From contig JAYGCM010000010.1 of assembly GCA_046583355.1 (NCBI GenBank), positions 1 through 64,000 on the forward strand: 64,000 nucleotides of DNA, in the 5' to 3' direction. The notes below the pieces were generated by a model. The model saw only the letters and a program-made list of their open reading frames with translations. It had not been told where the DNA came from and did not search any database. Each line of letters opens with the position of its first letter. Positions within the stretch are counted from its first letter, which is position 1. The translations under genes and the position numbers were made by a program. Source of the stretch: Deltaproteobacteria bacterium (GTDB taxonomy: Bacteria; Desulfobacterota; Binatia; UBA12015). Below are positions 5,223 through 48,701 of the stretch, one piece after another.

Positions 5223-5540
5223 ATGAAGCCGGGTGAAATTCTGGTCGCAGAAGGTGAGATCGTGCTCAACGAGGGGCGTGAAACCTGCAAGGTGGAGGTT
5301 GCGAATACCGGTGACCGCCCCGTGCAGGTCGGCTCCCATTACCATTTCTTTGAAACCAATACGGCCCTGCGGTTCGATCGCCCGGCCGCGCGTGGATTCC
5401 GGCTGAACATTCCGGCCGGCACGGCCGTTCGCTTCGAGCCGGGGCAGGTGCGCGAGGTCGAGTTGGTGGCGATCGGCGGAGATCGACGCATCTTCGGCTT
5501 CCGCGGGCAGATCATGGGCGATCTCGAGGAGCCCTCATGA
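5223..5540 (+). CDS. ureB: Urease beta subunit
   Basis: [38 protein letters not shown] 5223 follows AAGGAG. Confidence 0.98.
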
Positions 5541-7240
5541 GGAAAATTTCGCGTCAGGCATATGCCGAGCTCTACGGTCCGACGGTTGGCGATCGTGTCC
5601 GTCTGGCGGATACCGAACTCTTCGTCGAGGTCGAAAAGGACCATACCTCCTACGGCGACGAGGTGAGCTTCGGAGGCGGCAAGGTGATCCGCGACGGGAT
5701 GGGCCAGAGCCAGAGAATCAGCGCGGATGCCGTCGACCTGGTTCTGACCAATGCCCTGATCATCGACCATTGGGGTATCGTCAAGGCCGATATCGGCGTG
5801 AAAGATGGGCGGATCGCCGCAATCGGCAAGGCGGGCAACCCCGATACGCAAGATGGTGTCGATATCGTCCTGGGACCATGCACCGAGGTTCTGGCGGCCG
5901 AAGGCAAGATCGTGACAGCAGGGGCCCTCGATGCGCATATCCACTTCATCTGCCCACAGCAGGTCGAGGAGGCACTTGCCTCGGGCGTCACCACGATGCT
6001 CGGTGGTGGTACGGGGCCGGCCACGGGCACCAACGCGACGACCTGTACGCCGGGGCCGTGGAATATCCACCGAATGCTCGAAGCGGCCGATGCCCTGCCG
6101 ATGAATCTCGGTTTTCTCGGCAAGGGAAATGCGAGCCTGCCGGCGGCGCTCGAGGAGCAACTCGAAGCCGGCGCGATGGGACTCAAGCTGCACGAGGATT
6201 GGGGTACGACACCGTCGGCGATCGACAATTGCCTCTCGGTTGCCGAGCGCTACGACGTGCAGGTGGCGATCCATACCGACACGCTCAACGAGTCGGGCTT
6301 CGTGGAGGATACCCTGGCGGCGATCGGTGATCGGGCGATCCATACCTACCACACTGAAGGCGCCGGCGGCGGTCATGCGCCGGACATCATCCGTGCCTGC
6401 GGCGAGGCGAATATCCTGCCGTCCAGTACCAACCCGACGCGACCCTATACCGTGAACACGATCGATGAACATCTCGATATGCTCATGGTCTGCCACCATC
6501 TCTCTCCTTCGATTCCCGAAGACGTGGCGTTCGCCGAGTCGCGTATCCGGCGCGAGACAATTGCGGCCGAGGATATTCTGCATGACCTCGGCGCTTTTTC
6601 GATGATTGCTTCGGACTCGCAGGCGATGGGGCGCGTGGGCGAGGTGATCTGCCGTACCTGGCAGACGGCGCATAAGATGAAGGTGCAGCGCGGCAGCCTG
6701 GATGGCGATCCGGCTCGCCATGACAACGGCCGTGTCAAGCGCTATATAGCGAAATATACGATCAACCCGGCGCTCACCCACGGGATTGCGCATGAGGTCG
6801 GATCGATCGAGAAGGGGAAGCTGGCCGACCTGGTTCTGTGGGACCCTGCCTTTTTCGGCGTGAAGCCGAGTGTGATCGTCAAAGGGGGCTTGATCATCGC
6901 AGCCACGATGGGAGATCCGAATGCATCGATTCCCACGCCGCAGCCGGTGCATTTTCGACCGATGTTCGGCTCCCTCGGCCGCGCGCGCAACTCGACCTGT
7001 ACCACCTTTGTCTCCGCGGCGGCGCGCCGGGCTGGTGTCCCGGAGGCATTGCGGCTGCAGAACCGTATTGTCGAGGTCCGCGACACGCGCGCCATTCGCA
7101 AGAAGGATCTGATCCACAACAGCTGGCAGCCGCGGATCGAGGTCGACTCGCGGACCTACGAGGTGCGCGCCGATGGCGAGCTGCTCACCTGTGAACCGGC
7201 AACCGAGCTGCCCCTGGCGCAGCGCTACTTTCTTTTCTGA
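5537..7240 (+). CDS. ureC: Urease alpha subunit
   Basis: Nickel-site motifs [36 protein letters not shown] and flap MVCHHL. Ends LAQRYFLF. Confidence 0.99.
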
Positions 7241-7252
7241 GATTGAGGATTG

Positions 7253-7723
7253 ATGCTGAACCTGACGGAAAAATGTGCCGCGACGAAGGCGTTCGACAGG
7301 ACGCTTACCTTGTCGTTCGAGCGCAGGCAGAAGAGCCGGCAACGTGTCCGCCTCGATGACGGCGGCGAGGCCGCGATCGTACTCGCTCCGGGCTTGTCGC
7401 TGGCCGAAGGTGACCATCTGCGCGCGAGTGACGGCACGATCGTTCGGGTGCATGCCGGCCCCGAGGCGGTGACGGTTGCCTGTGCGGGGGATCCTCTTTT
7501 GCTTGCGCGTGCCTGCTACCATCTCGGCAACCGCCACGTCGCTTTGCAGGTCGGCGAGGGCTGGGTGCGCTATCAGCCTGATCACGTCCTGGATGCGATG
7601 GTCGTGGGGCTCGGGCTCGCGGTGACGCATGAGAATCTGCCCTTCGAGCCCGAGGGGGGTGCCTACGGTGGACAGCGCTTGGGCGGCAACGAGGGGCATA
7701 ACCATGCGCACGGCCATGGGTGA
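7253..7723 (+). CDS. ureE: Urease nickel chaperone UreE
   Basis: RQKSRQR, YHLGNRH, FEPEGGAY and a short His-rich tail HNHAHGHG. Confidence 0.95.
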   Translation: MLNLTEKCAATKAFDRTLTLSFERRQKSRQRVRLDDGGEAAIVLAPGLSLAEGDHLRASDGTIVRVHAGPEAVTVACAGDPLLLARACYHLGNRHVALQVGEGWVRYQPDHVLDAMVVGLGLAVTHENLPFEPEGGAYGGQRLGGNEGHNHAHGHG

Positions 7724-8393
7724 CCCCGGGACACCGCTGGTGCGGATGTTGCAACTTGCCAGTGCCGCTCTCCCGGTCGGTTCGTTCGCGTATTCGCAGG
7801 GGCTCGAATTTGCTGTCGAGGCACAGTGGGTGGTCGATGAGGCGAGTCTCGAGCGCTGGCTTGCCGAGCAGATGCGCTACGGGGTCGCCCGCGTCGATCT
7901 GCCGATGCTGGCGCGATTGATCGCGGCGACGCGCCGCGGAGATCGCCCGGAGCAAGCCCGGCTCGGCGCGACGCTGATTGCGATGCGTGAGACGAGTGAG
8001 CTGGTCGCCGACGATTGCGCACGCGGGCGCGCGCTTGCGCGCCTGCTCGGTGATCTCGATGTGGCCGGCGCCCGCTTCTGGCTGGACCAGGCGGAGATCC
8101 CCTATGCCGGGCCGATGGCCGCCGCTTTTGTCGCCTTCGATATCGCTTTGTCGCCCGCGCTCGAGATCTACGCTTGGAGTTGGCTGGAGAATCAGATCCT
8201 GGCCGGCGTGAAACTGGTCCCGCTCGGTCAGGTGGCCGGCCAGCGACTCCTCCTTGAACTGGGCGGCGGGATCGCGGAATTATGCACCGAGGCGCTGGGG
8301 CGCGGCGACGAAGAATTGGGTGGCACGTTGCCGATCGTGGCGCTCGCGAGCAGCCTGCATGAGACGCAATACACGCGCCTCTTTCGTTCGTGA
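7716..8393 (+). CDS. ureF: Urease accessory protein UreF
   Basis: LPVGSFAYSQGLE, VKLVPLGQ, HETQYTRLFRS. Start set at ATG 7716. Confidence 0.95.
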   Translation: MGDPGTPLVRMLQLASAALPVGSFAYSQGLEFAVEAQWVVDEASLERWLAEQMRYGVARVDLPMLARLIAATRRGDRPEQARLGATLIAMRETSELVADDCARGRALARLLGDLDVAGARFWLDQAEIPYAGPMAAAFVAFDIALSPALEIYAWSWLENQILAGVKLVPLGQVAGQRLLLELGGGIAELCTEALGRGDEELGGTLPIVALASSLHETQYTRLFRS

Positions 8394-8420
8394 CGGTTGA
8401 ACAAGAAGGAGAATCATCGA

Positions 8421-9043
<623 letters not shown>

Positions 9044-9044
<1 letters not shown>

Positions 9045-9184
9045 TGAAGAGGCTTCTGCTGGTTCTGGCCTGCCGCGAGGCGACCGGAACCCACGCGGCC
9101 TATCTGGAATGTCTCGAAGCGCGCGGTACCTGGGTTCTCGAAACGGACGAGGCGGCTGCGCGCGCGGGCCTCGATGTGTGGTAG
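9044..9184 (+). other. Small 46-aa ORF coupled to ureG; possible gene remnant
   Basis: TGATG overlap with the ureG stop. Begins MKRLLLVLAC, like a signal peptide. Below the ORF-track length cutoff. Confidence 0.3.
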
Positions 9185-9315
9185 CAGGGATCGCGTAGAG
9201 GTATCTCAAGGCGATTTTCAGCCTGCGGATGCGGCGCTATGAATTCCAGATGGTCCCGCCCTTTTCTCGGACGCGTGTTCTGGTGTAGTTCATCTCAAGA
9301 GGAGCGAGGTGCGGA

Positions 9316-9690
9316 ATGGAGTCCAACGATCATCGACCATTGGCGGCGCTTGGGCATGCGTTGATGACGGCCTCCGCGGTGTCGGCTGCGGCGAAGCGTC
9401 TTGAGGCGGTCGGTCTGCGAGCAATCGAGGTTCGCGGAGATTTTGCGGTGCTGGAGCTGCGCGGGGGGACGCATATCATCATTACGACGGACGATTCCGG
9501 GGCGATCTGCGAGGCCCCCTTCGATCTGATGTACGACGATATCGACGCGGCCCACAGGCTATTTGCTGCCAGCGGCTTTGTCGTGGAGGCAGTCTCACGG
9601 GCCAGATTTCATGATTCATTTTCGGCCTCTGCTCCCGAGGGCTTCCGCGTCAAGGTGAACTCCTCACACGCAAGCGGCCAGCCGGTTTGA
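9316..9690 (+). CDS. VOC/glyoxalase-like protein
   Basis: 124 aa with a paired beta-alpha-beta pattern (GH, AVLELRGGTH, FDLMYDDIDAAH, HDSF, APEG). GAGGT RBS upstream. Confidence 0.7.
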   Translation: MESNDHRPLAALGHALMTASAVSAAAKRLEAVGLRAIEVRGDFAVLELRGGTHIIITTDDSGAICEAPFDLMYDDIDAAHRLFAASGFVVEAVSRARFHDSFSASAPEGFRVKVNSSHASGQPV

Positions 9691-9806
9691 ATTTTTGGTA
9701 GATCCGCGTGCCGGGCGGAAGCTGGCCGGGGATTGATTTCCGGCCGGTTTCGCGGGAGATGAAGAGGGAGCGGCGCCCGCCAGGTGGGGGTGCGAAGGAG
9801 GGGTGG

Positions 9807-10367
9807 TTGCGGGTTCTGGGAATTGATCCGGGTTCGAGGCTTACGGGGTTTGGTGTGGTCGAGCAGCAGGGGCGCGCTTTGCGCGCGCTTGCGCATGGGG
9901 TCGTTCGGCCCGGCGCCGGCGATCTGGCTGCGCGGCTGGCTTCCCTGGTCAGCGGAATCGAGGCGGTTGTCGAGGAATGGCAGCCCGAGGTGATTGCGCT
10001 TGAATGTGCCTTTGTCGGCAAGAGTATGTCGAGCGCGCTGCGGCTGGGCGAGGTGCGCGGTGCGTTTCTCGCTTTTGCCGGTGGGCGTGGCCTGCCGGTT
10101 TTCGACTATCCGCCTGCCACCGTGAAGCTCACGGTGGCGGGTATCGGCAATGCCACCAAGGCAGTCGTGGCCCGGGCGGTTGCGGGAACGCTCGGTGGTA
10201 GCCACGATCCTGGGGATGCCGCCGATGCCCTCGCTGTCGCCCTTTGCCATCTTCAGCAGGGGAGCTTTCGCTCTCGCGTCGTTGAGGTCGGGCCGCGCCG
10301 CGGCCGGATCCAACAAGCCGCCTCGCGCCTGCCGCCCGGAGCCCGCTTTGTCCGCGTGTCGCGCTGA
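9807..10367 (+). CDS. ruvC: Holliday junction resolvase RuvC
   Basis: RVLGIDPGSRLTGFG, ALE, G-N-A-T-K, DAADALAVALCH. TTG 9807 follows GAAGGAG. Confidence 0.93.
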   Translation: MRVLGIDPGSRLTGFGVVEQQGRALRALAHGVVRPGAGDLAARLASLVSGIEAVVEEWQPEVIALECAFVGKSMSSALRLGEVRGAFLAFAGGRGLPVFDYPPATVKLTVAGIGNATKAVVARAVAGTLGGSHDPGDAADALAVALCHLQQGSFRSRVVEVGPRRGRIQQAASRLPPGARFVRVSR

Positions 10368-10382
10368 GTCGGGAGGCCCCTC

Positions 10383-10976
10383 TTGATCGGCGGCCTGCGC
10401 GGCAAGGTCGCGCGCAAAAGCCCGGGGCTTGTGCTGGTCGATTGCGGCGGCGTGCTCTACGAGGTCACGGTCTCTTTGCAGGCCTTCGCGGCTTTGCCGG
10501 CGGCGGGCGAGGCAGTCGAGATCGATATCATCACGCATGTGCGCGAAGACGTCCTGCAACTCTTCGGCTTTCTCGACGCGGCTGAGAAGACGGTTTTTCA
10601 TTGGCTGCGCTCGGTCAGCGGGGTCGGGCCGAAGCTCGCGATGAATATCCTCTCCGGCATGCCGGCGGCCGAAATCTGTGCGGCGCTTGCTGAGGGCGAG
10701 GCCGCGCGTCTGGTCAAGATTCCCGGGGTCGGCAAGAAGGTCTCCGAGCGTCTCGTGATGGAGCTGCGCGAGCGAGCGGCCAAGAGCGACCTGGCGGCCG
10801 AGGTCGGCGTTGCTGGAGATGCCGACGGGCGGGGGCCGGCGGATGAAGAGGCTCTCTCGGTTTTGGTGAATCTCGGCTACAAGAAGGCCGAGGCAGAGCG
10901 CGTCCTCCGGGCCGTGCCCAAGGGGCTCCCCCTCGAGGAGCTGCTGCGGGAGGCGCTGCGTGGTTTCGCGAAATGA
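10383..10976 (+). CDS. ruvA: Holliday junction branch migration protein RuvA
   Basis: MIGGLRG, HVRED, HhH motifs VSGVGPK and IPGVGKK, LVNLGY. Confidence 0.97.
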
Positions 10977-12007
10977 GCGAAGATTCGGAAGAAAGAGCGG
11001 TAGCGCCTGAAGAAGGCGATGCGGAGGTCTCCTTTGAGGCCTCGTTGCGGCCCGAGACTCTGCGCGATTATGTCGGCCAGGATCCCATCTGCGAGCGGCT
11101 CGGGGTGGCGATCGAGGCGGCGCGCAAACGCGGGGACGCGCTCGACCATATCCTTCTGGCCGGGCCACCGGGGCTGGGCAAGACCTCGCTGGCGCAGATC
11201 ATCGCGCGCGAGATGGGGGTTGCGTGCCGGCGCACGCAGGGGCCGGCCATTGAGCGCGGCGGCGATCTCGCGGCATTGCTCTCGGACCTGCAGGCGGGCG
11301 ACGTTCTTTTTATTGATGAGATTCACGGTCTGTCGAGCAAGATCGAAGAGATTCTCTACCCGGCCATGGAAGATTTCGAGCTCGACCTGATCGTCGGGCA
11401 GGGGCCTTCGGCGCGCAGTATGCGGCTCAAGCTGCAGCCCTTCACGCTGGTGGGTGCGACGACGCGCTCGGGTAGCCTGAATGCGCCGCTGCGCGATCGC
11501 TTCGGTACGAGCTTTCGGCTCGAGTTCTACGATACCGACTCGCTGGCGAAGATCGTCCAGCGTTCGGCCGGGATTCTGCGCCTGGATCTTGCGCCCGACG
11601 GTGCCTATGAAATCGCGCGGCGCTCGCGCGGTACGCCGCGCATCGCCAATAGGCACCTCAAATGGGTGCGGGATTTTTCTCAGGTACACCACGATGGCGC
11701 GAAGGTCTCGGCGCAGATCGCCTCGGACGCACTCTTGCTGCACCAGGTCGATGCCTCCGGGCTCGACACGATGGATCATGCCATCCTGCGCGTGATCGTC
11801 GAGCGTTTCGATGGCGGGCCGGTGGGCATCGAGAGCCTCGCCGCGATGCTGGCCGAGGCGCGCGAGACGATCGAATACGTCTATGAGCCATTTCTTGTGC
11901 AACGCGGCTATCTCGCGCGGACGCCGCGCGGTCGGGTCGCCACGGCGATGGCCTACGAGCTGCTGGGGCTGGATGCGCCACCGCCGGGGCAGGGGCGGCT
12001 GCTTTGA
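10973..12007 (+). CDS. ruvB: Holliday junction DNA helicase RuvB
   Basis: [42 protein letters not shown]. Confidence 0.98.
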
Positions 12008-14265
12008 GCGAAGAGCCCGAAGACGAAGAAGAGGGCAAAGGGAGTGGTCGCTCCTGGCGCCGTCGCGAGGCCTCGTTGCTGGTCGCGGCCATTCTCGCGG
12101 CCTTCTTCGTTCTGATCTACGAGACGCGTCTGCCGCCCTTTACCTCGAGCCAGACGCTGTCGCAGAATGTCGTCTTCTTTCTCCTTATCAATCTCAATAT
12201 TGTGCTGATTTTGCTGGTCAGCTTTCTGCTCGGTCGCAATATTGTGAAGCTGGTGATCGAACGGCGCCAGCGCGTATTGGGCTCGCACCTGCGTACGCGG
12301 ATCGTACTCGGCTTTGTCGGGGTGGCGATCACGCCTGCCGTGCTGCTTTTCATCGTGGCGTTGGGTTTTATTCGCTCTTCGGTCGAGACCTGGTTCTCGG
12401 TGCAGGTCGAGAGTGCGCTCGAAGCCTCGCTGGATATGGCCGACACCTATTACCGGGAATCGATGTCGACCGCCGTGCACGAGGCGCGGCTGATCGCCAT
12501 TGGCATAGAGAAACGTGGCGGCGTGGCCGGCACCGAAGATAGCTGGCTCGCGGCCCGCGAAAAGGAAATGCAGGCCGCTTCTATCCGCGTCTATGGCAGC
12601 GAGGCCAACCTGCTCGGCAAGGCGGAGACGGCCGGGCTCACCGGGCCCTTGGCGGTCGGGCCGGAGGTGCTCTTTCTCGAGAACGCGATTGCCGGAAACG
12701 AAAGGACGCAGGTGGTCGAGCGCGGCGGGACGACCTTGCTGCGCGCGGCTGCGGAGATTCGTACCGCGGAAGGGGCGGTCAGCGGCATTGTCGTGGTCGA
12801 TGCCATCATTCCCCGCAGCGTTGCGCGGCGCCGCGACGAGATTCAGCAAAGTTATCGCCAATACAAGCAGTTGAGCCTGATGCGCCGCCCCCTGATCAAT
12901 AATTATATATTGACTCTGGTCCTGGTCTCGATGGTCGTGGTCTTCGGTGGTACCTGGCTTGGCTTTGCGATCGCTCGCAGCATTACCACGCCGATCCAGC
13001 GCCTTGCCGAAGGTACGCGTCGGGTTGCCGAGGGCCACCTCGACGAGAAGCTTGAGCTGGAATCGGGTAGCGACGAGATCGCGACGCTTTTGAGTTCGTT
13101 CAACCGCATGACGGCGAATCTCCGCAGTTCGCATTCTGCTCTGGCCGAGCGCCGGCGCGCCCTTGAGACGATCCTGGGCAATATCGCGGGTGGCGTTGTT
13201 TCGATTGACCGGCAGGCGCGCATCGAGACCGTGAACGAGGCCGCGCGCTCGATGCTCGGCATCGGCGACGAAGCTCTTGGCGTGCCGTTCCGGGATTGGT
13301 TCTCGAGTCCGCGTTATCTTGCAGTGCGCGAGATTCTCGCCGAACTCGACAAGCGGGCACAACGTGGCGAGTGGGATAAATTGCCGCCGCAACGCCTCTC
13401 GATCGAACACGAAGGCGCCGCGGTGCAGGTGGTGGCGACCGGGGTGGTGCTGAAAAGCGAGGACGGCAAATCCATCGGTGCCTTGCTCTTCTTTGAAGAC
13501 GTGACGGAAATCTTGAAGGTCCAACGGATGGAGGCCTGGCGCGAGGTCGCACGCCGCATCGCCCATGAGATCAAAAACCCGCTGACGCCGATTCAGCTCT
13601 CGGCGCAGCGCCTGCGCAAGCGCTATGCCGCGGATCTCTCAGGGTCGGTGCTCGATGAATGTACGCGGACCATCATCTCGGAGGTCGAGGTGCTGAAGAA
13701 CCTCGTCAGCGAGTTCTCGAATTTTGCCCGCATGCCGGCCGGGCCGCATCTGCCGACGGACCTGAATGAATTGCTGGGCGACTCACTCACGCTCTTTCGG
13801 GCGGCGCACCGAGGCGTGCAATTCCATTTCTCTGCCGATGCGAAAATTCCCGATCTGGATCTCGATCCGGGTGGGATGCGCCGGGTGATGATGAACCTCC
13901 TGGACAACGCGGTGGCTGCGTTGCCTCTGGGTTCCGATACGGAAGCCAAATCTGATGTGCCGGGAAGTGCATCGGAGAGCCGTGCTTCCGGCCAGGTCTG
14001 GGTGGCCACTCGGCTGGACGAGGCCAACGGGCATGTGCGCCTGGAGATCGCCGACAATGGCTCGGGCATGACAAGCGAGGTCAAAGAGCGGCTCTTCGAG
14101 CCCTATTTCTCGACCAAGGCCCAGGGCACCGGCCTGGGGTTGGCCATCGTGCAGACGGTGCTGGCCGACCACCGGGCCTATATCCGAGTTCGCGACAACC
14201 AACCGCGCGGCTCGCGTTTCGTGATCGAGTTTCCCGTGCGCGATACGGGCCCGGCGGGCGTGTAG
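12004..14265 (+). CDS. NtrY-type membrane sensor histidine kinase (TM helices, periplasmic region, HAMP, PAS, HisKA, HATPase)
   Basis: H-box [23 protein letters not shown] (His521), [26 protein letters not shown]-terminal TM helices and a GSHLRTR motif typical of NtrY. Confidence 0.92.
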
Positions 14266-14293
14266 GGGCGAGATCAGGTAAAGAAGGCGGACA

Positions 14294-15541
14294 ATGGGCA
14301 AGAAGATCCTGGTCGTTGATGACGAAGAGAAAATCCGTCAGAGCCTGCGCGGCGTGCTCTCCGATGAGGGCCATGTGGTCGTGGAGGCCGGTGACGGCCG
14401 ACAGGCCTTGGAAGTCCTGGACGCAGAGCAGCCGGATCTGGTGATTCTCGACGTCTGGCTCCCCGAGGTCGATGGCCTGACGTTGCTGGAGAAGATCAAG
14501 GGCGAGCACCCGGAACTGCCCGTCATCATCATCTGTGGGCATGCCAATATCGAGGCGGCCGTACGCGCCACCCGGTTGGGTGCCTCGGATTTCATCGAGA
14601 AGCCTTTCTCGATCGAGGCCATCCTCGCCTCGATCACGCGCGCGCTGGGAGACGCGGCCAGTGCCGATTCGGGCGAGCCTGCATGGAGTGGGGCGGTGGT
14701 CTCGGACAACGCGGACCTCGTCGTGCCGCAGAAAACCATCGGCCGTAGCGTGACGGCGAGTGGCCGCGGGCTACATACGGGCATCAAGACCGGAATCATT
14801 CTGCATCCCGTTCCGGCCGGCACCGGCATCCTCTTCCAGAGTCTGGCCACCGAGAAGTCCGTACCGGCACACGTCGATTTCGCCGACTCCACGGGCTACG
14901 CGACCACGCTTTTTCGCGGTGGCTTCGGCGCAAAAACCGTCGAGCACCTTCTCGCCACCCTGCAGGGCTACGGCATCACCAATCTCATGGTGAAAATGGA
15001 GGGCGAGGTGCCGATTCTCGACGGCTCGGCTGCGGTCTTCTGCGATCTGATCGAAGAGGCCGGTATTATCGAGCAACCCGGTCCGGGGGTTACGCCCTTC
15101 ATCGTGCGCGAGCGCCATGCGGTCGAGATCGGTGGCAATACGATTGTCGTCGAGCCCCATGACGGTCTTCTGATCGACTATACGCTGGACTACCCGGCTC
15201 CTGTGGGCATGCAACACTTTGTCTTCGACTTCACGGGTGTGGAATCCTTCAAGAAGGAAATCGCACCTGCACGGACCTTCGGCTTCGTGCATGAGTTCCG
15301 TCAATTAGTCGAAAATGGTCTCGCCGCGGGCGGGCAGCTCGACAATTGCGTACTCATCGGTGAGGACGGCGTGATCAATGGCGAATTGCGTTTTGAAGAC
15401 GAGTTCGTACGGCATAAAATTCTCGATATCATCGGGGACTTCGCGCTTCTCGGCCAACCGCTGCGGGCCCGGATTACCGCACGCGCTACCGGCCATCGTC
15501 ATAATGTCGCGATGGTGCGCGAACTCCTTGCCGCCGCGTAG
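14294..15541 (+). CDS. lpxC: Fusion of an NtrX-like receiver domain and UDP-3-O-acyl-GlcNAc deacetylase LpxC
   Basis: aa 1-118 are a REC domain (DD9-10, D53, K103-P). aa 146-415 are LpxC (QKTI, GxGLHTG, TVEH, EVPILDGS, EIAPARTFGF, RHKILDIIGD, GH). Single uninterrupted ORF. Confidence 0.95.
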   Translation: MGKKILVVDDEEKIRQSLRGVLSDEGHVVVEAGDGRQALEVLDAEQPDLVILDVWLPEVDGLTLLEKIKGEHPELPVIIICGHANIEAAVRATRLGASDFIEKPFSIEAILASITRALGDAASADSGEPAWSGAVVSDNADLVVPQKTIGRSVTASGRGLHTGIKTGIILHPVPAGTGILFQSLATEKSVPAHVDFADSTGYATTLFRGGFGAKTVEHLLATLQGYGITNLMVKMEGEVPILDGSAAVFCDLIEEAGIIEQPGPGVTPFIVRERHAVEIGGNTIVVEPHDGLLIDYTLDYPAPVGMQHFVFDFTGVESFKKEIAPARTFGFVHEFRQLVENGLAAGGQLDNCVLIGEDGVINGELRFEDEFVRHKILDIIGDFALLGQPLRARITARATGHRHNVAMVRELLAAA

Positions 15542-15556
15542 AGGCCCGGCCTCCGA

Positions 15557-16459
15557 CTAAGAGAGTTTCGGCCGGCGCAGCGTGCCCTTCAATTTGTAGA
15601 AGGCATCGCCCTGCGTGCGTTTGGGCAGCAGCAGGGGGAGTGCGCGCAATCCGGCGGGGGCGTCTGCGTGGATCTGCAGCTCGAAGCGGATATCGAGTAT
15701 GCTGGATTCGAGCGGTTGCGCCAGCTGAATGCGGCCGGTCGCGCGCAGCGTAAGCTCGGCGCCACGGGCACTGAATTCCGAGATCTCGAGGCGTTTGCCG
15801 TCGAGCCTCGCCCGCAGCTGCACGCTCTCGAACGTAAGGTTCGGTACCTTGAAGCCTGCCGCCAGCAGGTCGCGCAGGCCGACCGCTGCGGCGTCCAGGC
15901 TCAGGGCACCGACCAATTCGCGACCACGGGGATCGCCTTCGAGATCGAGGGCAATCCGCGCCGTACCCAGTAGCGCTCCGCCGCCAGGGAAGAGGCCGCG
16001 CGTGGCTTCGGCCAGTTCGAGATTTTCGCCTTCGAGCGCGAGCAGGAAGCCACGCGGATCACCGGCCAGTCGGGCTTCGAGCACGCCGCCCCAGAGCCGG
16101 GCTTCGAGGTCGATAGCAGCGGGCGCGCCAGGCAGCAGCAGGCTGGTAAGGACCGGGGCTGCGTCGAGCGAATCGATGTGGATCGTCGGGCCGTCTTTGC
16201 CCTCGGGCAGGATCTGCAGGTCGCGGACGGTGTAGCCGAGCAGCGGGCGCAGCGAGAGTTCGCGGAATTCGATGCCGACCGCGCTGCTACGAGTGGCGCG
16301 CTCGATCAGCTGACGCGCGATTTTCTCATGCGGCAAAGTGGCGACCACGCCCACCACGAAGACGGCGAGTGTGAAGCAGGTATAGCCGATCGCCAGGCGG
16401 TGGCGGCCGAGCGCGTCGCGCAGGCCGGCAAAGGAGATAGAGCGTCGTGGCGATTTCAT
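15557..16459 (-). CDS. gspN: Type II secretion protein GspN
   Basis: N-terminal TM helix followed by TLP, a beta-rich body and C-terminal GTLRRP. Last gene of the gsp operon. Confidence 0.75.
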   Translation of the reverse strand: MKSPRRSISFAGLRDALGRHRLAIGYTCFTLAVFVVGVVATLPHEKIARQLIERATRSSAVGIEFRELSLRPLLGYTVRDLQILPEGKDGPTIHIDSLDAAPVLTSLLLPGAPAAIDLEARLWGGVLEARLAGDPRGFLLALEGENLELAEATRGLFPGGGALLGTARIALDLEGDPRGRELVGALSLDAAAVGLRDLLAAGFKVPNLTFESVQLRARLDGKRLEISEFSARGAELTLRATGRIQLAQPLESSILDIRFELQIHADAPAGLRALPLLLPKRTQGDAFYKLKGTLRRPKLS

Positions 16460-17022
16460 CGTGGCTGCAGGCGTGTCACGACGATCGTTGCGTCGAGAAG
16501 AGTCGGATCTTTATATTGTCTCTTGAAGCTCGTGCGGTCGACCTTCATGCCGGCCTGGCGGACCTCGATGGCATGCAGGAGCCGGATCAGGCGATGGCTC
16601 GAGATTCCCTCGAGGCGCATATCGATCGCTTCCTGGCGAAAGCCATCGTCGAGGTCGCGCGTGGTCGGGTTCATCGAGGAGATATGTTCGCGGCCGACCA
16701 CGGGCACAGTGAGCGACTCCAGCTGCGCGAAGAGCGAGTGGGCGGTCCCTTTGCCGGCCTTCTTTTGTAGCTTGCCTACTTCGGCTTCCAGGACCGCGTG
16801 ACGTTGCGCGAGTTCGGCGATGGCGGTGGCGTCGCGCCGCGCGATGCGCAGGTCGCGGTCGAGGCGCGCGAGCGAGTCCGTGAGTGGTTCGTAGATGCCG
16901 AGCCAGAGCAGCAGCACCAGGCTGATAGCGCCGGCGCCTTGGACCAAGCGGCGCTCGCGTACGGCCAGGCCATCAAGCCAGGTGCGGGCTTCTTCCAGGA
17001 GTAGGCGCAGGCGATCGCCCAT
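16456..17022 (-). CDS. gspM: Type II secretion protein GspM
   Basis: LAVRERR, a TM helix, a coiled coil and a ferredoxin-like C-terminus. ATG 17022 lies just after the gspL stop. Confidence 0.8.
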   Translation of the reverse strand: MGDRLRLLLEEARTWLDGLAVRERRLVQGAGAISLVLLLWLGIYEPLTDSLARLDRDLRIARRDATAIAELAQRHAVLEAEVGKLQKKAGKGTAHSLFAQLESLTVPVVGREHISSMNPTTRDLDDGFRQEAIDMRLEGISSHRLIRLLHAIEVRQAGMKVDRTSFKRQYKDPTLLDATIVVTRLQPR

Positions 17023-17023
17023 T

Positions 17024-18391
17024 TCAGCGATCCTCCGGGGCGAGGGTGGCGCGGAACTCGATACGGCCATCGACGCCGGACTTCACGTCCTGCACGCGTG
17101 CGGCGGCGAAGGCAGGCAGCGCCTCCAGACCGCGCGTGACGATATCGACCGACTCGAAGGTGTCGGTGCGGCCGCGGAAATGGATGCCGGTGTCGTCGAT
17201 GGTGAGTTCCACGATTTCGAGGGGGATCTCGCCGGGAATGGCTTGGTGGATCGCGAAGAGGTGGTCGAGAGTTCGGGCGCTGGCGGACCCGGCCCCACCC
17301 AGCATGGCGCTGCGTTTCTCCAATGCCTCCAATTTGGCCCGGACCCGGCGGACCTCCGTGCCGGGCACGGCCTTGGGTGCGATCTTCCGTGTCGCGCGGC
17401 TGATATCCTGGCGCAGCGCGCTGAGTTCCGCGCGGCGCTCGGCCACAACGACACCCCAGCTGCCGAGCAGGATCAACAGAGTGGCTGCCGCAATATAGAG
17501 CGTGCGACGCAATTGGCGCTGCGCTTCCTCGCTGGGTGCGTGGTAGGCGAACGCGCCATTGCGGAAATTCGGCAGCGCAGGATTGCTCTCCGCGGCCGCT
17601 GAGGCCAAGGCAAAGGCGCGCAGCGCCTCTGCCGGAACTGCTGCGGCCGGGCCGGAGAGTCCTTCGGCAAGCGGGCGTATGGGGTTGGCAATTTTTTTTG
17701 CCAGCGATTCGCAGAGTGCGTCGTCGCCCGTGAGCAGGATGTCGCGGGTCTCGTCATTCTGGAAGGCCGCCCCGGCCCAGGCAATCTCGCGCGCCAACTC
17801 GCTCGCGCCGCTGGCGCCGAAGCCATGCAGGCGAGTGATATGGCCGTCGTCGAATATAACGAGGCCGCCATTGTCCCGTGCCTCGAGCAAGAGAGTCGGC
17901 TTGGTCGGGGCGAGCAGGGCGGCCAAGGCGAGCGGGCCGATGGTGACCAGGGCCGGGTCGATGCCCGCCTCGCGCAGGAAGTCGATATGCGCTGCCATCG
18001 CGCTGCGCGAGGTGATGGCGGCGAGTACTGTGGTTTTCGGCCCGTTACGGTGGAGCACATTCCATGCGACGACGGAATCTTCCAGGTCGAAGGGGACCTC
18101 GGATTCGAGCTCGAAGGGGATGGTCGCGCGAAGCTTGGCCGCATCAGGGAAGGGGAGCTGCAGGATCCGGTGGCTGACGCTGGCACCGGGCAATGCCGTG
18201 GCGACCGCACCTGGACCCTCGGGGCATTCGCGCGCCAGGCTTTCGCGCAGCGCGGCGGCCAACTCGCCGCCGACCTTGCCCTCGACGCGCCAATTTTTAC
18301 GCAGCGCAAGCGTCCTGCCGGTACGCGCCACCAAGGAGAGCACGGCATGGTCCGAGCGGATATCGATCCCCAGCGAGAGCACGTTTCTCAA
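17024..18391 (-). CDS. gspL: Type II secretion protein GspL (actin-like cytoplasmic domain, TM helix, PilN-like domain)
   Basis: LGIDI, RILQLPF, IPFELESEVPF, PNFR before the TM helix. Start uncertain (18382, 18391 or 18433). Confidence 0.8.
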   Translation of the reverse strand: MRNVLSLGIDIRSDHAVLSLVARTGRTLALRKNWRVEGKVGGELAAALRESLARECPEGPGAVATALPGASVSHRILQLPFPDAAKLRATIPFELESEVPFDLEDSVVAWNVLHRNGPKTTVLAAITSRSAMAAHIDFLREAGIDPALVTIGPLALAALLAPTKPTLLLEARDNGGLVIFDDGHITRLHGFGASGASELAREIAWAGAAFQNDETRDILLTGDDALCESLAKKIANPIRPLAEGLSGPAAAVPAEALRAFALASAAAESNPALPNFRNGAFAYHAPSEEAQRQLRRTLYIAAATLLILLGSWGVVVAERRAELSALRQDISRATRKIAPKAVPGTEVRRVRAKLEALEKRSAMLGGAGSASARTLDHLFAIHQAIPGEIPLEIVELTIDDTGIHFRGRTDTFESVDIVTRGLEALPAFAAARVQDVKSGVDGRIEFRATLAPEDR

Positions 18392-18457
18392 CCTACCGGA
18401 TTCCGCTGAAAGTCCCAATTGCCGCGCAGGCATCTGGTTTTCGGCCGTACCTCCGGG

Positions 18458-19411
18458 TCAGCGGGGGCGCTCGGACCAGTAGATGCGTTCGAGTTTGTCG
18501 CCGCGGCGCCGCACCAGGGTCTCGAGGCGCTCGAGGGTATCGCCGATGCGGCCGGTAGCGTGGATACGGAAATACTCGCTGCGCCGCCCGTATTCGACGC
18601 CAACCGAGTCGGCGATATCCTCCTTGGCGCATACGTCCTCGAGCGGTAATTCCTCGCCGAAGCCTTCCAGGGGGAGGGGGTAATCTGCCTCGATCGCGCA
18701 GCCGATCACCTTGAGGACCAGCGCCGGAGCGGTATCGGCGTTCACGCCCTTATGGCCTTTCTTGCCGTCTGATCGGCGGTAGGCGGTTACAAAGGGGCGC
18801 AGCCGGGCGATGGTCTTTTCGTCGAAGCCGCGGATCAGACGCAATTCGTCCAGACTGCGCAGCGGGCCGCCGCGCGGCCGGCACGGCATGGCGAGCGCGC
18901 AGGCGCCGCTGGCAATGGCGCGCATACCCGCGTCCTGGTCGGCCGAGATCCAGGCATGGACGAGTTCGAGTAGGCCGATGTCGATATCGAGTTCCTCGAA
19001 GAGAGCCTCCAGAGTGTGGCGGTGCTTCTCGTCACCGACCTGATTGAGGTTCAGCTTCCCTTCCTCGTCCTCGATGCGGATCGAGATATCCCCGTCGCCC
19101 AGCGGCAAGACGACAAAGGAGAGTGGCAGCAAGGTGAGGCGGGTGGTCGGCTTGCGCTTGCGCAGGATCTGGCCGAGGTAGGCCGAGCCGCCTTCTTCGG
19201 CCGCGCGCGCAAGCAGGCGTGCGCCCGCCGAGTTGCCGCTATTGCGGGCGAGGTGACTATGCAGCATGGCCGATTCGGTGGTCTCGAGGACGATCAGGGT
19301 GAGCAATGCAACCGAGAGCAGCGCCGCCAGCAGCGCGACGCCGCGCTCGCTTTTGCCGATTCGCTGCGGCAGCAGCCGCCGCACGAAACCTGCCATGTCG
19401 AGCCTTTTCAT
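18458..19411 (-). CDS. gspK: Minor pseudopilin GspK
   Basis: ERG|VALLAAL, DEEGKLNLN, SLDELRLIRGF, VNADTAP, SEYFRIHA. Confidence 0.9.
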   Translation of the reverse strand: MKRLDMAGFVRRLLPQRIGKSERGVALLAALLSVALLTLIVLETTESAMLHSHLARNSGNSAGARLLARAAEEGGSAYLGQILRKRKPTTRLTLLPLSFVVLPLGDGDISIRIEDEEGKLNLNQVGDEKHRHTLEALFEELDIDIGLLELVHAWISADQDAGMRAIASGACALAMPCRPRGGPLRSLDELRLIRGFDEKTIARLRPFVTAYRRSDGKKGHKGVNADTAPALVLKVIGCAIEADYPLPLEGFGEELPLEDVCAKEDIADSVGVEYGRRSEYFRIHATGRIGDTLERLETLVRRRGDKLERIYWSERPR

Positions 19412-20046
19412 CGGGTCGGCCCCATCGGCAGGGTAACCAGGAGGCGGTAGACCTCGGGGGAATCGCTGCCGTCGTCGAGGGCGAGCGAGAGTCGCACGGC
19501 CCGCGGCAGGTCGTCGCGGCTGTCCGCCGCACTCCAGGTACGGACCCATTCGCGTGAGCGGCCGGGAAGAAGCTCGGCCGAGAAGCTGTGCACGCCGTCC
19601 AGGATGACGGCCGAGACGGGCTCAACGCCGGGTGCGGCGACCGAGGGAAGTTGTTCCTTGATGAGGACGCGCGCCCCCGGCACCCAGGGGTCATCATCCA
19701 GCCGGTAGTGGACGAAGGCGACCGGATCGACCAGATCCCCTCGCATCCGGCGGGCGGCTGTGGTGGCGAAGCGCAGCTCGCTTGCGGGAACCTCGAAGCT
19801 CCGATCGACGAGGAGGAAGCCGCCTTCCTCGCCGGCAATGGGAACGGCACCGGTCAGCTCCTCGGCCAGGCGCGCCAGCGTCGTGCGCGCCGCGGCCGTA
19901 TTCTCCATGCGTCGCTCGGCGTAGTCGCGTGACTCGAGGGTCTGCTGGAAGGGCCCGACCTGCGCGGCGAAGAGGATGCCGATGATGGTGAAGGAGACCA
20001 GAAGCTCCAGCAGCGTGAAGCCACGCTCGTCGCCAGCTACCGTCAT
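19408..20046 (-). CDS. gspJ: Minor pseudopilin GspJ
   Basis: RG|FTLLELLV prepilin motif and C-terminal LPRAVRL. Confidence 0.88.
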   Translation of the reverse strand: MTVAGDERGFTLLELLVSFTIIGILFAAQVGPFQQTLESRDYAERRMENTAAARTTLARLAEELTGAVPIAGEEGGFLLVDRSFEVPASELRFATTAARRMRGDLVDPVAFVHYRLDDDPWVPGARVLIKEQLPSVAAPGVEPVSAVILDGVHSFSAELLPGRSREWVRTWSAADSRDDLPRAVRLSLALDDGSDSPEVYRLLVTLPMGPTR

Positions 20047-20429
20047 CGCAGATTCCTCGAGACGAAGACGGTGAGTTCGACCGCGGCCTCTTCACCAAAA
20101 GATGGAGTGACGCGGATGCGGACCTCGCGGGTGCCGGGGAGGATCCACTCGCTCACCTCGCGCTGCCACACGAAGCCTTTTGCCTCGCCCGGCGTTGCGG
20201 CCTCGAAATCACCCTTGCTGGTGCCGAGGTCGGGCCAGCCCTCCAGTTGGGATTCGGCGGCCAGCGTCTCGGCCAGAAGGAGGGCGCGGCTATAGGCTTC
20301 TTCACGGCCCAGGGTGCGAAGGTTCTCGACGTGCAGACTCAGCAATGCCGTGAATGCCGTCGCGATCACGGCGAGCGCGACCATGACCTCCAGCAAGGTG
20401 AAGCCACGCTGGCTGAAACGCCGCACCAC
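20043..20429 (-). CDS. gspI: Minor pseudopilin GspI
   Basis: RG|FTLLEVMVALAV. GTG start after GAGGT. Confidence 0.88.
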   Translation of the reverse strand: MVRRFSQRGFTLLEVMVALAVIATAFTALLSLHVENLRTLGREEAYSRALLLAETLAAESQLEGWPDLGTSKGDFEAATPGEAKGFVWQREVSEWILPGTREVRIRVTPSFGEEAAVELTVFVSRNLR

Positions 20430-20434
20430 GAAGG

Positions 20435-20959
20435 CTACCTCATCCCCGCGACCGGGCCGTCGATCACACGCGGACGCGTGCGGGCCGGTTCGATGAGGAT
20501 CGAGACGATGCGCCCGGAGTCGTCGGCGATCTGGACGACCGTCGGGTCGACATAGCCGTCGGCGGCAAAGAGGACGCCGAGGCGACCGTCGGCGGTGGGT
20601 CGTGCGCCGGGTCCACCGAGTTGCAGAGTAAGCGAGTCGGGTAGCTTGAGTGGGCGGTAGAGCGGGCCTTCGCCGGAAACGAAAACCCATCCCTCCGGCG
20701 TCTCCACACCTTCTTCGGTGAGCAGCAGCTTCTCTTCGGGCAGGGCGACCAGGCGGATCCAGATGCCGCGGCGCGCGGCTTCTTCGCGCAGGTAGCGCAC
20801 GCGATTGGAGATGCGGCGGCTTGCCGTATCCAACTCGGCACCTGTCAGTACATCGAGACGCGGCAGCACCAAAGTGGCGAGCAGGCCGACCAGGGCCAGC
20901 ACCAGCATCAGCTCCAGGAGGGTGAAACCCCGCGCGCGGTTTTTGTCACGAATGGGCAG
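20435..20959 (-). CDS. gspH: Minor pseudopilin GspH (probable CTG start)
   Basis: RARG|FTLLELMLV lies upstream of the first ATG (20908). The best start candidate is CTG 20959 after AAGGTGG. C-terminal FAADG. Confidence 0.85.
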   Translation of the reverse strand: MPIRDKNRARGFTLLELMLVLALVGLLATLVLPRLDVLTGAELDTASRRISNRVRYLREEAARRGIWIRLVALPEEKLLLTEEGVETPEGWVFVSGEGPLYRPLKLPDSLTLQLGGPGARPTADGRLGVLFAADGYVDPTVVQIADDSGRIVSILIEPARTRPRVIDGPVAGMR

Positions 20960-20971
20960 ACGTCCCCACCT

Positions 20972-21406
20972 TCACCCCAAATCGCGGGAGTCGATATCGG
21001 CGTCCACGCCCTGGCCGCCCTCGATGCCATCGGCACCGAAGGAGAGCAGGAGGTAGTCGCGCCCGTCGCTCTCGTAGATGAAGGGCATATCCCAGGGGTC
21101 GGTCGGGACATTGTCGAGGTAGGCACGCCAGCGCCGCGCCTGTGGGCCACTACTCGGCTGGCGCACGAGCGCTTCGATGCCCTGGTCGGTCGTGGGGAAA
21201 TGCCCGTTATCGAGTTTGTAGAGGCTGAGCGCCTGCTCGACCGAGCGAATATCGGCGGCTGCCTTGGTCGCGCGGGCGTCGTCTGTGCGGCCCAGAATTT
21301 TTGGTGCGACCAGGGTGACCAGCAGGCCCATGATGAAGACCACGACCATGATCTCGATCAGGGTGAACCCGGCTTCTTTGCGCTGCTTCCAATTCATGAG
21401 ATTCAT
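20972..21406 (-). CDS. gspG: Major pseudopilin GspG
   Basis: AG|FTLIEIMVV, YKLDNG, PTTDQG, PTDPW, SFGADG, DADI. Confidence 0.97.
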   Translation of the reverse strand: MNLMNWKQRKEAGFTLIEIMVVVFIMGLLVTLVAPKILGRTDDARATKAAADIRSVEQALSLYKLDNGHFPTTDQGIEALVRQPSSGPQARRWRAYLDNVPTDPWDMPFIYESDGRDYLLLSFGADGIEGGQGVDADIDSRDLG

Positions 21407-21407
21407 C

Positions 21408-22613
21408 CTATCCGACAAGGGAATTGATTTCGAAAATGGGCAGGAGCACGGCCAGCACGATGAAGAGCACCAGGCCGCCCATCACTACGATCATGGCAGG
21501 CTCCAATATACTGGTGAGTGTGGCCAGGGCACCCTCGACTTCTTGCTCGTAGGCATCGGCCACGCGAATGAGCATGGGCTCGAGCTCGCCCGAGCGCTCG
21601 CCGACCGCGATCATGCGCACCAGGAGAGGCGGGAAGAGGCCGGTATCGCGTAGCAATTCACTCAGATTGCCGCCCTCACGTACGCCGATGCGGGCCAACT
21701 CAACCGCCGCGCCCAGGGCCGTATTGCCGGAGGTATTGCTCGCCAATTCCAGTGCTTCGAGCAGCGGGATGCCGCCTGAGAGCAGGGTCGCCAGCGTCCG
21801 CGAGAAGCGGCCGACCGCGATGCGTGTGAAAAGCGGGCCGAGTACGGGCAAGGTCAGGAGTTTATGGTCGAGCCAGAGGCGCCCGCCGGGTCGCCGCAGG
21901 GCTGTCATGGCCGCGATGATAGCCGAGGCGAGCAGCGCGACGACCAGCCACCACCATTCGGCGAGCGAATTGGATATGGCGAGCAGGAAGCGTGTCGGCA
22001 GCGGCAGCGACTCGTGCTGGTTGGCGAAAATCTTCGTGACTTTGGGCACCACGAAGCTCAGCAGGAAGAAGACGATCCCGCCGGCGACTGTGAACATCAG
22101 CACGGGGTAGGCCAGCGCATTGCGCACCCGCGCTTGCAATTGCACCTGTGACTCGGAGTAGAGCGCGAGGCGCTCCAATACGAGGTCGAGTGCGCCCGCG
22201 GCCTCGCCGGCGCGGACCATGCCGACAAAAAGTGGCGGGAAGGAGGCCGGATGCTCGGCCATGGCGTCGCCCAGGGCGCTGCCCTGGGTCACGGCGTCGC
22301 GAATATGGGAGAGGATGCGCTCGACCCCGGGGCGGTCGGTTTGCTCGCCAACGGCCTCGAGGCATTCGACCACCGGGATGCGCGCGGCCATCAGCGTGGC
22401 GAGTTGGCGCGAGACCAGGGCCAATTCGGTTGGCGTGATACGCGCCTCGCCGCTGCGCGCGCGCTTGGCTTCGGTCTCGCCTTCTTCGACCTCGGTCGGA
22501 AAAACGCCCTGCAGGCGCAGCTTCGTCCGGGCGCCTTTGGCCGAATCCGCCTCGACGATTCCGTTCACCTTATGGCCGGAGTCGTTCAGGCCCTGATACG
22601 CGAAAACGGGCAT
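21408..22613 (-). CDS. gspF: T2SS inner-membrane platform protein GspF
   Basis: MPVFAY, RQLATL, AGEAAG, ALAYP, VGERSGEL, LEP. Confidence 0.96.
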   Translation of the reverse strand: MPVFAYQGLNDSGHKVNGIVEADSAKGARTKLRLQGVFPTEVEEGETEAKRARSGEARITPTELALVSRQLATLMAARIPVVECLEAVGEQTDRPGVERILSHIRDAVTQGSALGDAMAEHPASFPPLFVGMVRAGEAAGALDLVLERLALYSESQVQLQARVRNALAYPVLMFTVAGGIVFFLLSFVVPKVTKIFANQHESLPLPTRFLLAISNSLAEWWWLVVALLASAIIAAMTALRRPGGRLWLDHKLLTLPVLGPLFTRIAVGRFSRTLATLLSGGIPLLEALELASNTSGNTALGAAVELARIGVREGGNLSELLRDTGLFPPLLVRMIAVGERSGELEPMLIRVADAYEQEVEGALATLTSILEPAMIVVMGGLVLFIVLAVLLPIFEINSLVG

Positions 22614-33493: not shown

Positions 33494-34771
33494 ATGGAGC
33501 GAGGCTTTATTCCTTGGCCCTTGCGCGTAGGCTGGCGCTTTTTGCGCGCCCGGCGTCGCGAGCGCTTCGTCTCGGTGATCGCCCTGATTGCCGGCGGTGG
33601 TGTGGCGATCGGCGTCATGACGCTTTGTATCGTCCTCGCCGTCATGACGGGTTTTGAGGAGGATCTGCGCGAGCGCATTCTCGGCTTCAATCCGCAGATC
33701 GTGCTGATGAGCCACGGCGGTATGGTGCAGGACAGCGCCGCACTCGAAGCGCTGGTCGAGACCGTGCCGGGTGTCGCCGCGGCCGCACCCTTTATCTACG
33801 GCCAGGTCATGCTCACCAGCGATACTGGCGTGGTCGGGGGCATCGTGCGTGGCGTCGAGCAGGCGCAACTCGACGATGTGGTCAAGATCCGTCGCCATAT
33901 CACCCAGGGTACGATCGATACGCTCGGCGAACGCACGTCGGTGGAGGTTTATATCGACGGCGAGGCCGAACGCATCGAGGTCTCGCAGATCGTCCTGGGC
34001 TTCGAGTTGGCCGCCACGCTGGGCGTGCGCGTGGGCGATTGGGTGAATGTGATGTCGCCGGCCGCCACCGCCACCGCATTGGGTGCCGTGCCGCGCGTGA
34101 AACGTTTTGCCGTTGCCGGTCTCTTCGATTCCGGGATGTACGATTACGACTCGACCGTGCTTTTCCTCTCGCTGGGCGACGCACAGCGTTTTCTCAAGAT
34201 GGGCGGGAACGTCACGGGCCTTGAGGTGCGGGTCGAGGATATCGACGAGACCCGTGCCGTGGCACGCTCGATCGAGGAGGCCGCCGGCTTCCCGATCTAT
34301 GCGCGCGATTGGATGGAGGTGAACCGCAACCTCTTTATGGCCTTCGAGTTGGAGAAGCTGGTGCAATTCATCGTCCTGCTCCTGATTGTGCTGGTGGCGG
34401 CTTTCAATATTGCCGCCACGCTCATCATGGTGGTGATGGAGAAGCGCAAGGATATCGCGGTACTCAAAGCCATGGGCGCGACCAATGCGGCCGTCGCCGC
34501 GATCTTCATCTTCAAAGGAGCCCTGATCGGCGTGACCGGGACGCTGGTGGGCGTGGTCGGTGGCCTGGTCGGGTCGCTGTTGTTGGAGCGTTATGAGTTC
34601 ATTGAGCTGCCCAAAGATGTCTTCTATGTCTCGACCGTGCCGATCCGCCTGGAACTCGAGAATTTCCTCGCCGTAGCCGGCGCCAGTATCCTGATTTGTA
34701 TCCTCGCAACTATTTATCCCGCCCGGCAGGCCGCGCGTCTCGCTCCTGTCGAAGTGATTCGCTACGAGTGA
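33494..34771 (+). CDS. lolE: Lipoprotein-releasing ABC transporter permease (single LolC/E-type)
   Basis: VLAVMTGF, LVAAFNI, VMEKRKDIAVLKAMGA, YPARQAA, IRYE. Confidence 0.9.
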   Translation: MERGFIPWPLRVGWRFLRARRRERFVSVIALIAGGGVAIGVMTLCIVLAVMTGFEEDLRERILGFNPQIVLMSHGGMVQDSAALEALVETVPGVAAAAPFIYGQVMLTSDTGVVGGIVRGVEQAQLDDVVKIRRHITQGTIDTLGERTSVEVYIDGEAERIEVSQIVLGFELAATLGVRVGDWVNVMSPAATATALGAVPRVKRFAVAGLFDSGMYDYDSTVLFLSLGDAQRFLKMGGNVTGLEVRVEDIDETRAVARSIEEAAGFPIYARDWMEVNRNLFMAFELEKLVQFIVLLLIVLVAAFNIAATLIMVVMEKRKDIAVLKAMGATNAAVAAIFIFKGALIGVTGTLVGVVGGLVGSLLLERYEFIELPKDVFYVSTVPIRLELENFLAVAGASILICILATIYPARQAARLAPVEVIRYE

Positions 34772-34781
34772 CCAGCGATTC

Positions 34782-37834: not shown

Positions 37835-37853
37835 GTTGGAAGGAATGAAACAA

Positions 37854-38375: not shown

Positions 38376-38387
38376 GCGCAACCGGCC

Positions 38388-42552: not shown

Positions 42553-42620
42553 ACCTCGCCCTTGGCTGCCATGCGGCGGCTTTGGACCGGGTGGCGGGAA
42601 TCCGTTAGGCAAATGCTTCG

Positions 42621-47525: not shown

Positions 47526-47569
47526 TTTCGTATCGGCATGTGGTTTAAGGCGCGAACGAGGGTTCTTGG

Positions 47570-48511: not shown

Positions 48512-48524
48512 AGAAGGATAAATA

Positions 48525-48698
48525 ATGGCATTGAGCAAAGAACTTCTAGAAATTTTGGTTTGTCCGAAATGCAAAGGCGAGGTCGTTCTCGCCGCCGCGG
48601 GCGATAGCCTCGGCTGTCAGGCTTGTGCGCTTCGCTTCCGGATCGAGGACGATATCCCCGTCATGCTGATCGACGAGGCAACGCCGCTTTCGAGCTAG
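48525..48698 (+). CDS. Trm112/YcaR-family protein (57 aa)
   Basis: Translated by hand: MALSKELLEILVCPKCKG...CQAC...IEDDIPVMLIDEA. AAGGA RBS. Absent from the ORF track. Confidence 0.92.
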   Translation: MALSKELLEILVCPKCKGEVVLAAAGDSLGCQACALRFRIEDDIPVMLIDEATPLSS

Positions 48699-48701
48699 CC
48701 G

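Follow-up and report, generated by a model that had tools for sequence, protein, structure and literature searches.

The 64,000-nucleotide stretch of DNA considered in this work (positions 1 to 64,000 of the forward strand of contig JAYGCM010000010.1, assembly GCA_046583355.1, from a Deltaproteobacteria bacterium of the class Binatia, phylum Desulfobacterota; hereafter, the window) harbors a two-gene system in which a gene coding for an NtrY-type sensor histidine kinase is followed, after a gap of 28 bp and on the same (+) strand, not by a full-length ntrX, but by a gene coding for a receiver domain (REC) fused to the lipid A biosynthetic enzyme LpxC. Comparison with related genomes revealed that this REC::LpxC fusion and free NtrX are mutually exclusive and that the fusion replaces NtrX. 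Judging from the sequences compared, a system that acts on the lpxC gene in the relatives has likely come to act directly on the LpxC enzyme here.

The fusion gene (14294..15541, +) codes for a protein of 415 residues and, according to Pfam, TIGR00325, and a genome search, represents the only lpxC of the genome. Pfam assigns residues 5–114 to Response_reg and residues 146–412 to LpxC, and found neither an AAA+ nor a helix-turn-helix (HTH) domain in the protein. The LpxC half lies above the TIGR00325 cut-off (225.7 vs. 187.25 bits); the closest REC-type family is NtrX (NF051870), matching residues 4–119 only and with 130 bits against a cut-off of 600, that is, below the NtrX family threshold. 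The original prediction, made from the letters of the DNA alone, had described an NtrX-like receiver without AAA+ or HTH and a kinase ending 28 bp before it, and both statements are borne out (12004–14265 and 14294–15541 for the two genes). The protein appears to descend from NtrX without being a member of that family, and would work like a response regulator with an enzymatic output.

The NtrX-derived receiver (residues 1–119; 14294..14650, +) carries D9, D10, E11, D53, W55, C81-G82-H83, F100, and K103, together with the marks of NtrX-type receivers (D-x-W, G-H, and DFIEKP). Asp53 (14450..14452, +), the predicted phospho-acceptor in the motif LDVWLP, is an aspartate in 150/151 short and 130/131 long fusions, and K103 is kept in all 151 distinct short ones. 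The linker that follows (residues 120–143; 14651..14722, +) is unconserved and predicted to be disordered, and represents the site at which the long forms harbor AAA+ and HTH; its length is 21–112 residues in the short forms and 256–358 in the long ones. The LpxC deacetylase domain (14723..15538, +) contains E217, H218, H374, D378, and H401, which align to the P. aeruginosa LpxC, are invariant in 282/282 fusions (151/151 short), and which we take to be the zinc ligands and the catalytic Glu and His. The fusion is putatively active as a deacetylase, being the sole lpxC copy of a genome (97% complete) that harbors lpxA, lpxI, lpxB, lpxK, and waaA. A second lpxC and a free NtrX were considered as well and rejected, as the genome search and the REC tree show neither.

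The kinase gene (12004..14265, +; 753 residues), which starts with a TTG codon overlapping the ruvB stop, codes for the sole NtrY_N match of the genome (34.8 bits vs. a cut-off of 23.2) and was recognized from Pfam (NtrY_N, HAMP, PAS, HisKA, and HATPase_c), hydropathy, and the N, G1, F, and G2 boxes. Three N-terminal hydrophobic segments (residues 21–43, 51–86, and 98–127 in the hydropathy profile) precede a periplasmic part, a fourth segment (296–324), and then HAMP, PAS, HisKA, and HATPase. The predicted phospho-histidine, His521 (13564..13566, +), lies in AHEIKNPLT, a motif common to the NtrY kinases of fused and unfused genomes.

In the REC phylogeny, which is based on a short alignment, the receiver of the window groups with free NtrX and other fusions (support 0.88), and the 15 other REC open reading frames of the genome fall outside the NtrX group, as do three distant fusion receivers; the affiliation with NtrX put forward in the original prediction is, therefore, upheld. 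To place the fusion within the phylum, an even sample of 151 genomes was analyzed, in which the LpxC scores split into 37 high-scoring matches, in frames of at least 410 residues, and a lower class; 32 of the 37 lie outside the class Binatia. In about half of these 32 the REC was read directly, whereas the assignment of the others relies on score and on the length of the frame. An NtrY orthologue is present in every one of the 32. An ntrY followed by ntrX was found in none of the 26 readable fusion-class genomes (one more being too short), vs. 8 of the 11 unfused ones. With free NtrX as the query, 0/55 fusion genomes exceeded the paralogue background (best 1.7e-131; the background of unfused genomes reaches 2.6e-132), and 24/25 unfused genomes gave matches at 3.6e-141 or better; the single miss (G151) has its ntrY at a contig end. 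This count covers 80 of the 86 intended genomes, with 20 candidates scored per genome, and is to be read with an unfused set that was hand-picked, a threshold read from the data, and kin that are not independent. The retention of the kinase without a free NtrX supports the NtrY-REC pairing better than adjacency does, and we infer that NtrY and the receiver of the fusion are cognate. In several fusion genomes (loci L167, L170, L171, L180, L181, L188, and L189), the orphan ntrY is followed, in the place of ntrX, by what we presume from the N-terminal sequence to be an smpB-like gene.

Within the class, the fusion is present in 41/41 genomes, 40 times at full length and once (G036) frameshifted, with the kinase and ruvB frameshifted too in the same stretch; a reading-frame artefact was accordingly rejected. 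The kinase lies directly upstream in 37/41 genomes, and the remaining four sit at contig ends: in G005, G007, and G011 the fusion begins less than 100 bases from the end, and in G019 the C-terminal part of the kinase is present up to it. Identities of REC and LpxC are 79/75% (34 rows), 59/58% (27 rows), and 43/45% (18 rows), with 6–16% for the linker, i.e., the receiver is conserved to the same degree as the enzyme at three depths. The adjacency expected by the original prediction is thus conserved within the class and not outside it, where it holds in only 4/32 genomes; the pairing itself finds support in the comparison (the REC group, the lack of another NtrX-type receiver, and the mutual exclusion with free NtrX).

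In the unfused genomes, lpxC often precedes (DUF4390)-ntrY-ntrX (L038, L051, L077, L084, L140–L144, L164, and L165). The DUF4390 gene adjoins ntrY in 5/5 unfused-relative loci tested; no match to it was found in the genome of the window (G000), the profile firing on five control loci. A sigma-54-like site lies just upstream of lpxC in L084, L140–142, L163, and L165, and none was seen there in L038, L051, L077, L143, L144, and L164; no sigma-54 motif occurs within 8000–16000 of the window.

A circuit of this kind has been described in Desulfovibrio (DVU2931/DVU2934 and Dde_3000/Dde_3003): DVU2934, whose operon also includes the kinase DVU2931 and an HD-GYP regulator, is reported to have lpxC as its sole target (PMC3333781), and in the kinase mutant lpxC alone is reported to be strongly raised, two promoter motifs being given (PMC4045070). 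The published sigma-54 motif was retrieved in 3/401 genomes of the order of Desulfovibrio; in one (G524) both promoter motifs precede lpxC, and no lpxC follows the motif in the other two. About 15 kb downstream of lpxC, G524 harbors genes for an HD-GYP protein, for an NtrX-type regulator (61% identity across the 67 residues compared), and for an NtrY-type kinase (35% identity over residues 78–749, E 3e-125). Because of this match in motif and gene order, there is good support for the published pair being NtrY-NtrX, the correspondence to the named genes being indirect. Both systems would, therefore, be two-component pairs with lpxC as the sole known target; that of Desulfovibrio acts on sigma-54 transcription through a separate REC-AAA+-HTH protein, whereas in the window REC lies inside LpxC, with no AAA+, HTH, or sigma-54 motif.

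As for the origin of the fusion, at least 115 REC + AAA+ + LpxC proteins were found among the best 120 matches of a search for longer proteins, some of them carrying the names Nitrospinota, Tectomicrobia, or Schekmanbacteria; a Desulfomonile locus also codes for such a protein. The family forms a series, REC-AAA+-HTH-LpxC, REC-HTH-LpxC, and REC-LpxC, the protein of the window being the shortest form; the intermediate P0249, without AAA+, is 76% identical to the long form P0168 across HTH and LpxC. Walker A is kept in 121/131 distinct long forms. Since GAFTGA is kept in 0/131 of them (it is exact in 15/21 free NtrX) and the Walker B DE in none of the 12 commonest variants among the 131, the long forms are unlikely to be sigma-54 activators.

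In a 62-row LpxC tree (quick search, midpoint root), 46 fused domains lie on one side of a branch with an SH-aLRT of 96, and the short label requires 10 changes, at least three of them forced by strong branches, which suggests three or more losses of AAA+ with REC retained each time. A FastTree analysis of 135 LpxC rows agrees on the fused group (support 0.999), with four stand-alone rows nested inside, two of which resemble fragments (P0277 and P0283) and two begin with Met (P0330 and P0302); all four were left out of the 62-row tree and of the residue and covariation analyses. A number of short forms diverge early, with long branches, so that the root of the LpxC tree is not fixed; the intermediates and the decay of AAA+ nevertheless point to an order from long to short, and a full-length NtrX::LpxC fusion likely came first. 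The original prediction, by contrast, had invoked one deletion within an ntrX-lpxC pair; the fusion likely did not arise in this way, as lpxC lies upstream of ntrY in unfused genomes, full-length NtrX::LpxC proteins are common, REC-HTH-LpxC intermediates occur, and no free-NtrX locus inspected had lpxC within 1.5 kb downstream. A bolder scenario, which is somewhat more likely than not, starts from an NtrY-NtrX circuit dedicated to lpxC. In a single event, NtrX would have been fused to the very enzyme whose gene it regulated, so that direct phospho-allosteric control took the place of transcriptional control, AAA+ and HTH then decaying and being repeatedly deleted. Lipid A synthesis would thereby have come to be controlled mainly through an LpxC switched by phosphorylation, both in Binatia and in lines of Desulfobacterota, Nitrospinota, Tectomicrobia, and Acidobacteriota.

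AlphaFold2 models of the fusion, computed from alignments of 84 and of 80 rows, reached predicted local distance difference test (pLDDT) values of 89 and 90 and predicted template-modeling (pTM) scores of 0.88 and 0.85; a pLDDT below 50 is confined to the linker (residues 122–137). The LpxC part superimposes on solved LpxC with a root-mean-square deviation of 1.5–2.3 Å (TM 0.6 by query length). As LpxC alone makes up about 0.62–0.66 of the chain, simple arithmetic indicates that pTM could hardly rise above about 0.65 if REC had no defined position; because both values exceed this limit despite the disordered linker, the models suggest a defined REC-LpxC contact within the chain. Furthermore, fused LpxC domains carry residues that are rare in 119 free LpxC sequences (V154, T166, G167, I169, and K234), G167 being present in 99% vs. 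6% and K234 in 97% vs. 1%. They sit on strands 153–159, 165–171, and 231–235 and, from their alternation, presumably share a single face of the first sheet, although common descent would account for these residues just as well.

These data can be combined into the following mechanism, which we consider probable: NtrY would set the phosphorylation state of Asp53, and REC, docked on LpxC in the same chain, would change the activity of the enzyme, probably switching it on when phosphorylated. The sign would be that of the ancestral circuit, given that in the unfused system lpxC expression is increased by the sigma-54 activator in its phosphorylated state and increases again when the kinase is lost; for the latter reason, the usual effect of NtrY would be that of a phosphatase holding lipid A synthesis down. 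The Caulobacter NtrY is reported to act mainly as a phosphatase (10.1101/2021.04.17.440287), and the Desulfovibrio mutant implies the same; the transfer from His521 to D53 proposed in the original prediction may be only half of the switch. As for the signal, an envelope or lipopolysaccharide (LPS)-state cue sensed in the periplasm is the likeliest guess.

Several observations weigh against this mechanism. The phospho-donor of Asp53 may be other than NtrY, because NtrX phosphorylation in Caulobacter does not need NtrY. The kinase adjacency is lost in 28/32 fusion-class genomes outside the class, and, alongside a divergent REC::LpxC, one genome (G076; L191 and L190) has a free lpxC that immediately precedes an ntrY not followed by ntrX. 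Moreover, Cys81 (14534–14536) replaces the conserved Ser/Thr switch residue of the receiver, as it does across this family-level group (72/151 short fusions), so that canonical switching is not assured; a redox role of this residue is possible. The stand-alone proteins P0330 and P0302 may be true REC losses, REC being dispensable in some lines, or truncated gene calls. Lastly, the pTM values stand without a control and name no contact surface, and mean-field covariation across 302 fusions (effective number 68) gave only noise between the domains; no pair of positions spanning them is relied on.

In favor of the proposed mechanism, bound proteins can control LpxC allosterically (PMC11046580, PMC12444477). 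In E. coli, LpxC is under proteolytic control (PMC11046580), and it is conceivable, although unlikely, that the phosphorylated REC of the fusion governs the amount or the place of LpxC, through FtsH, Lon, or Clp proteolysis or membrane recruitment by NtrY, rather than its catalytic rate. The last residues of the fusion of the window are LLAAA, and more short forms terminate in AAA (36/151) than in any other sequence. Such an end resembles non-polar degrons. The role of an adaptor also appears vacant, as no LapB was found above the NF008757 cut-off in the genome; a PF18073 match was rejected as LapB, this profile firing in 10/14 controls, including LPS-free genomes. However, the C-termini vary, 115/151 lacking a terminal AAA, and the high pTM favors a fixed REC-LpxC contact over a loose tag. 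Control of amount or place is, in any case, compatible with the switching of LpxC by the docked receiver, and the two are not mutually exclusive.

More doubtful is a constitutive LpxC whose receiver signals outward or backward, by dimerizing, binding another target, or reporting the LpxC level to NtrY, the fusion coupling only expression or position. The linker is flexible and unconserved, and some long forms, with their frequent Walker A and often an HTH, could bind nucleotide or DNA, but the short forms lack any other output domain, and E87, K91, and K109, near-fixed in the free NtrX receiver, are relaxed in the fusions, which argues against a retained NtrX-type dimer; the near-fixed G167 and K234, rare in free LpxC, point the same way, except that shared ancestry could give the same pattern. 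Finally, that REC is a relic, or that NtrY acts on some other regulator and lies beside the fusion merely by descent, is very improbable: the lost adjacency outside the class, the possible REC losses, and the three distant receivers outside the NtrX group would fit, but REC is conserved like the enzyme, D53 and K103 are nearly invariant, and NtrY is kept, yet no free NtrX-class match occurs in 55 fusion genomes.

The proposed switching of LpxC by its own receiver has parallels in other systems. Response regulators with an enzymatic output, such as CheB, PleD/WspR, and RpfG, combine REC and a catalytic domain in one chain, and the docking proposed here would be as in CheB; their outputs are signaling enzymes, whereas in the window the output is the enzyme for the committed step of a biosynthetic pathway that is essential, and its only copy. 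The alphaproteobacterial NtrY-NtrX systems (Rhodobacter, Caulobacter, and Brucella) share the kinase architecture, the NtrX-type REC, and a link to the envelope and lpxC, the loss of ntrYX in Rhodobacter raising lpxC transcripts 8.8-fold, indirectly (PMC7240162); unlike the fusion, in which the regulator is the enzyme, their NtrX acts as a transcription factor on a broad regulon and affects lpxC indirectly. In the control of LpxC by LapB/FtsH/YejM in E. coli and by MurA in P. aeruginosa (PMC11046580, PMC12444477), LpxC is likewise the control point and its activity is altered by a bound protein, but these are separate proteins and not phosphorylation switches.

Concerning the genomic surroundings, ruvC-ruvA-ruvB (9708..12007, +) lie upstream, abutting the kinase gene, and are probably on the same transcript as the kinase and the fusion; ruvB is also upstream in L022, L023, L139, and L149. 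A promoter and terminator scan was uninformative (2 promoter-like sites vs. 1.1 expected). Upstream of the ruv genes are what we take to be urease genes (5537–9044, +), and a presumed type II secretion cluster (15557–22613, −), with a T2SSM profile match, converges on the 3′ end of the fusion. The window also harbors lpxA, lpxI, lpxB, waaA, and lpxK (38388–47525), within an envelope cluster (33494–49778, +) from which lpxC lies apart and which embeds genes for an FtsX/LolC-type permease, bamA, fabZ::lpxA, lpxI, an oxidoreductase, lpxB, an msbA-like ABC transporter, waaA, lpxK, an epimerase, and a heptosyltransferase. FabZ and LpxA share one frame of 423 residues (38388–39659, +), being fused in 4/5 relatives checked, whereas in G025 their two frames overlap. 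Another contig of the genome (C13) carries a second copy of lpxA.

The REC::LpxC fusion was not found in the literature searched, which did not cover subscription papers and two response-regulator census reviews. Term look-ups in the accessible text of two recent reviews (PMC12444477 and PMC13333357) gave no occurrence of “fused” or “fusion”, and no fused or phosphorylation-switched LpxC was met there; databases label such proteins merely as deacetylases or NtrX. What is added here is the count of the mutual exclusion of fusion and free NtrX, the decay of AAA+ with its intermediates, the link through G524, and the pTM result.

LpxC commits the cell to outer-membrane lipid A; it is the point at which LPS synthesis is controlled, and drugs are aimed at it. 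If the proposed switching is true, it would add a third way of controlling LpxC to proteolysis and MurA, with NtrY as the envelope sensor behind it. REC::LpxC would also offer a one-protein soluble read-out for the signal of NtrY and for whether this kinase is mainly a phosphatase. In evolutionary terms, the family would illustrate how a transcription factor fused to its own target enzyme and shed its DNA-side domains, with the intermediates still extant.

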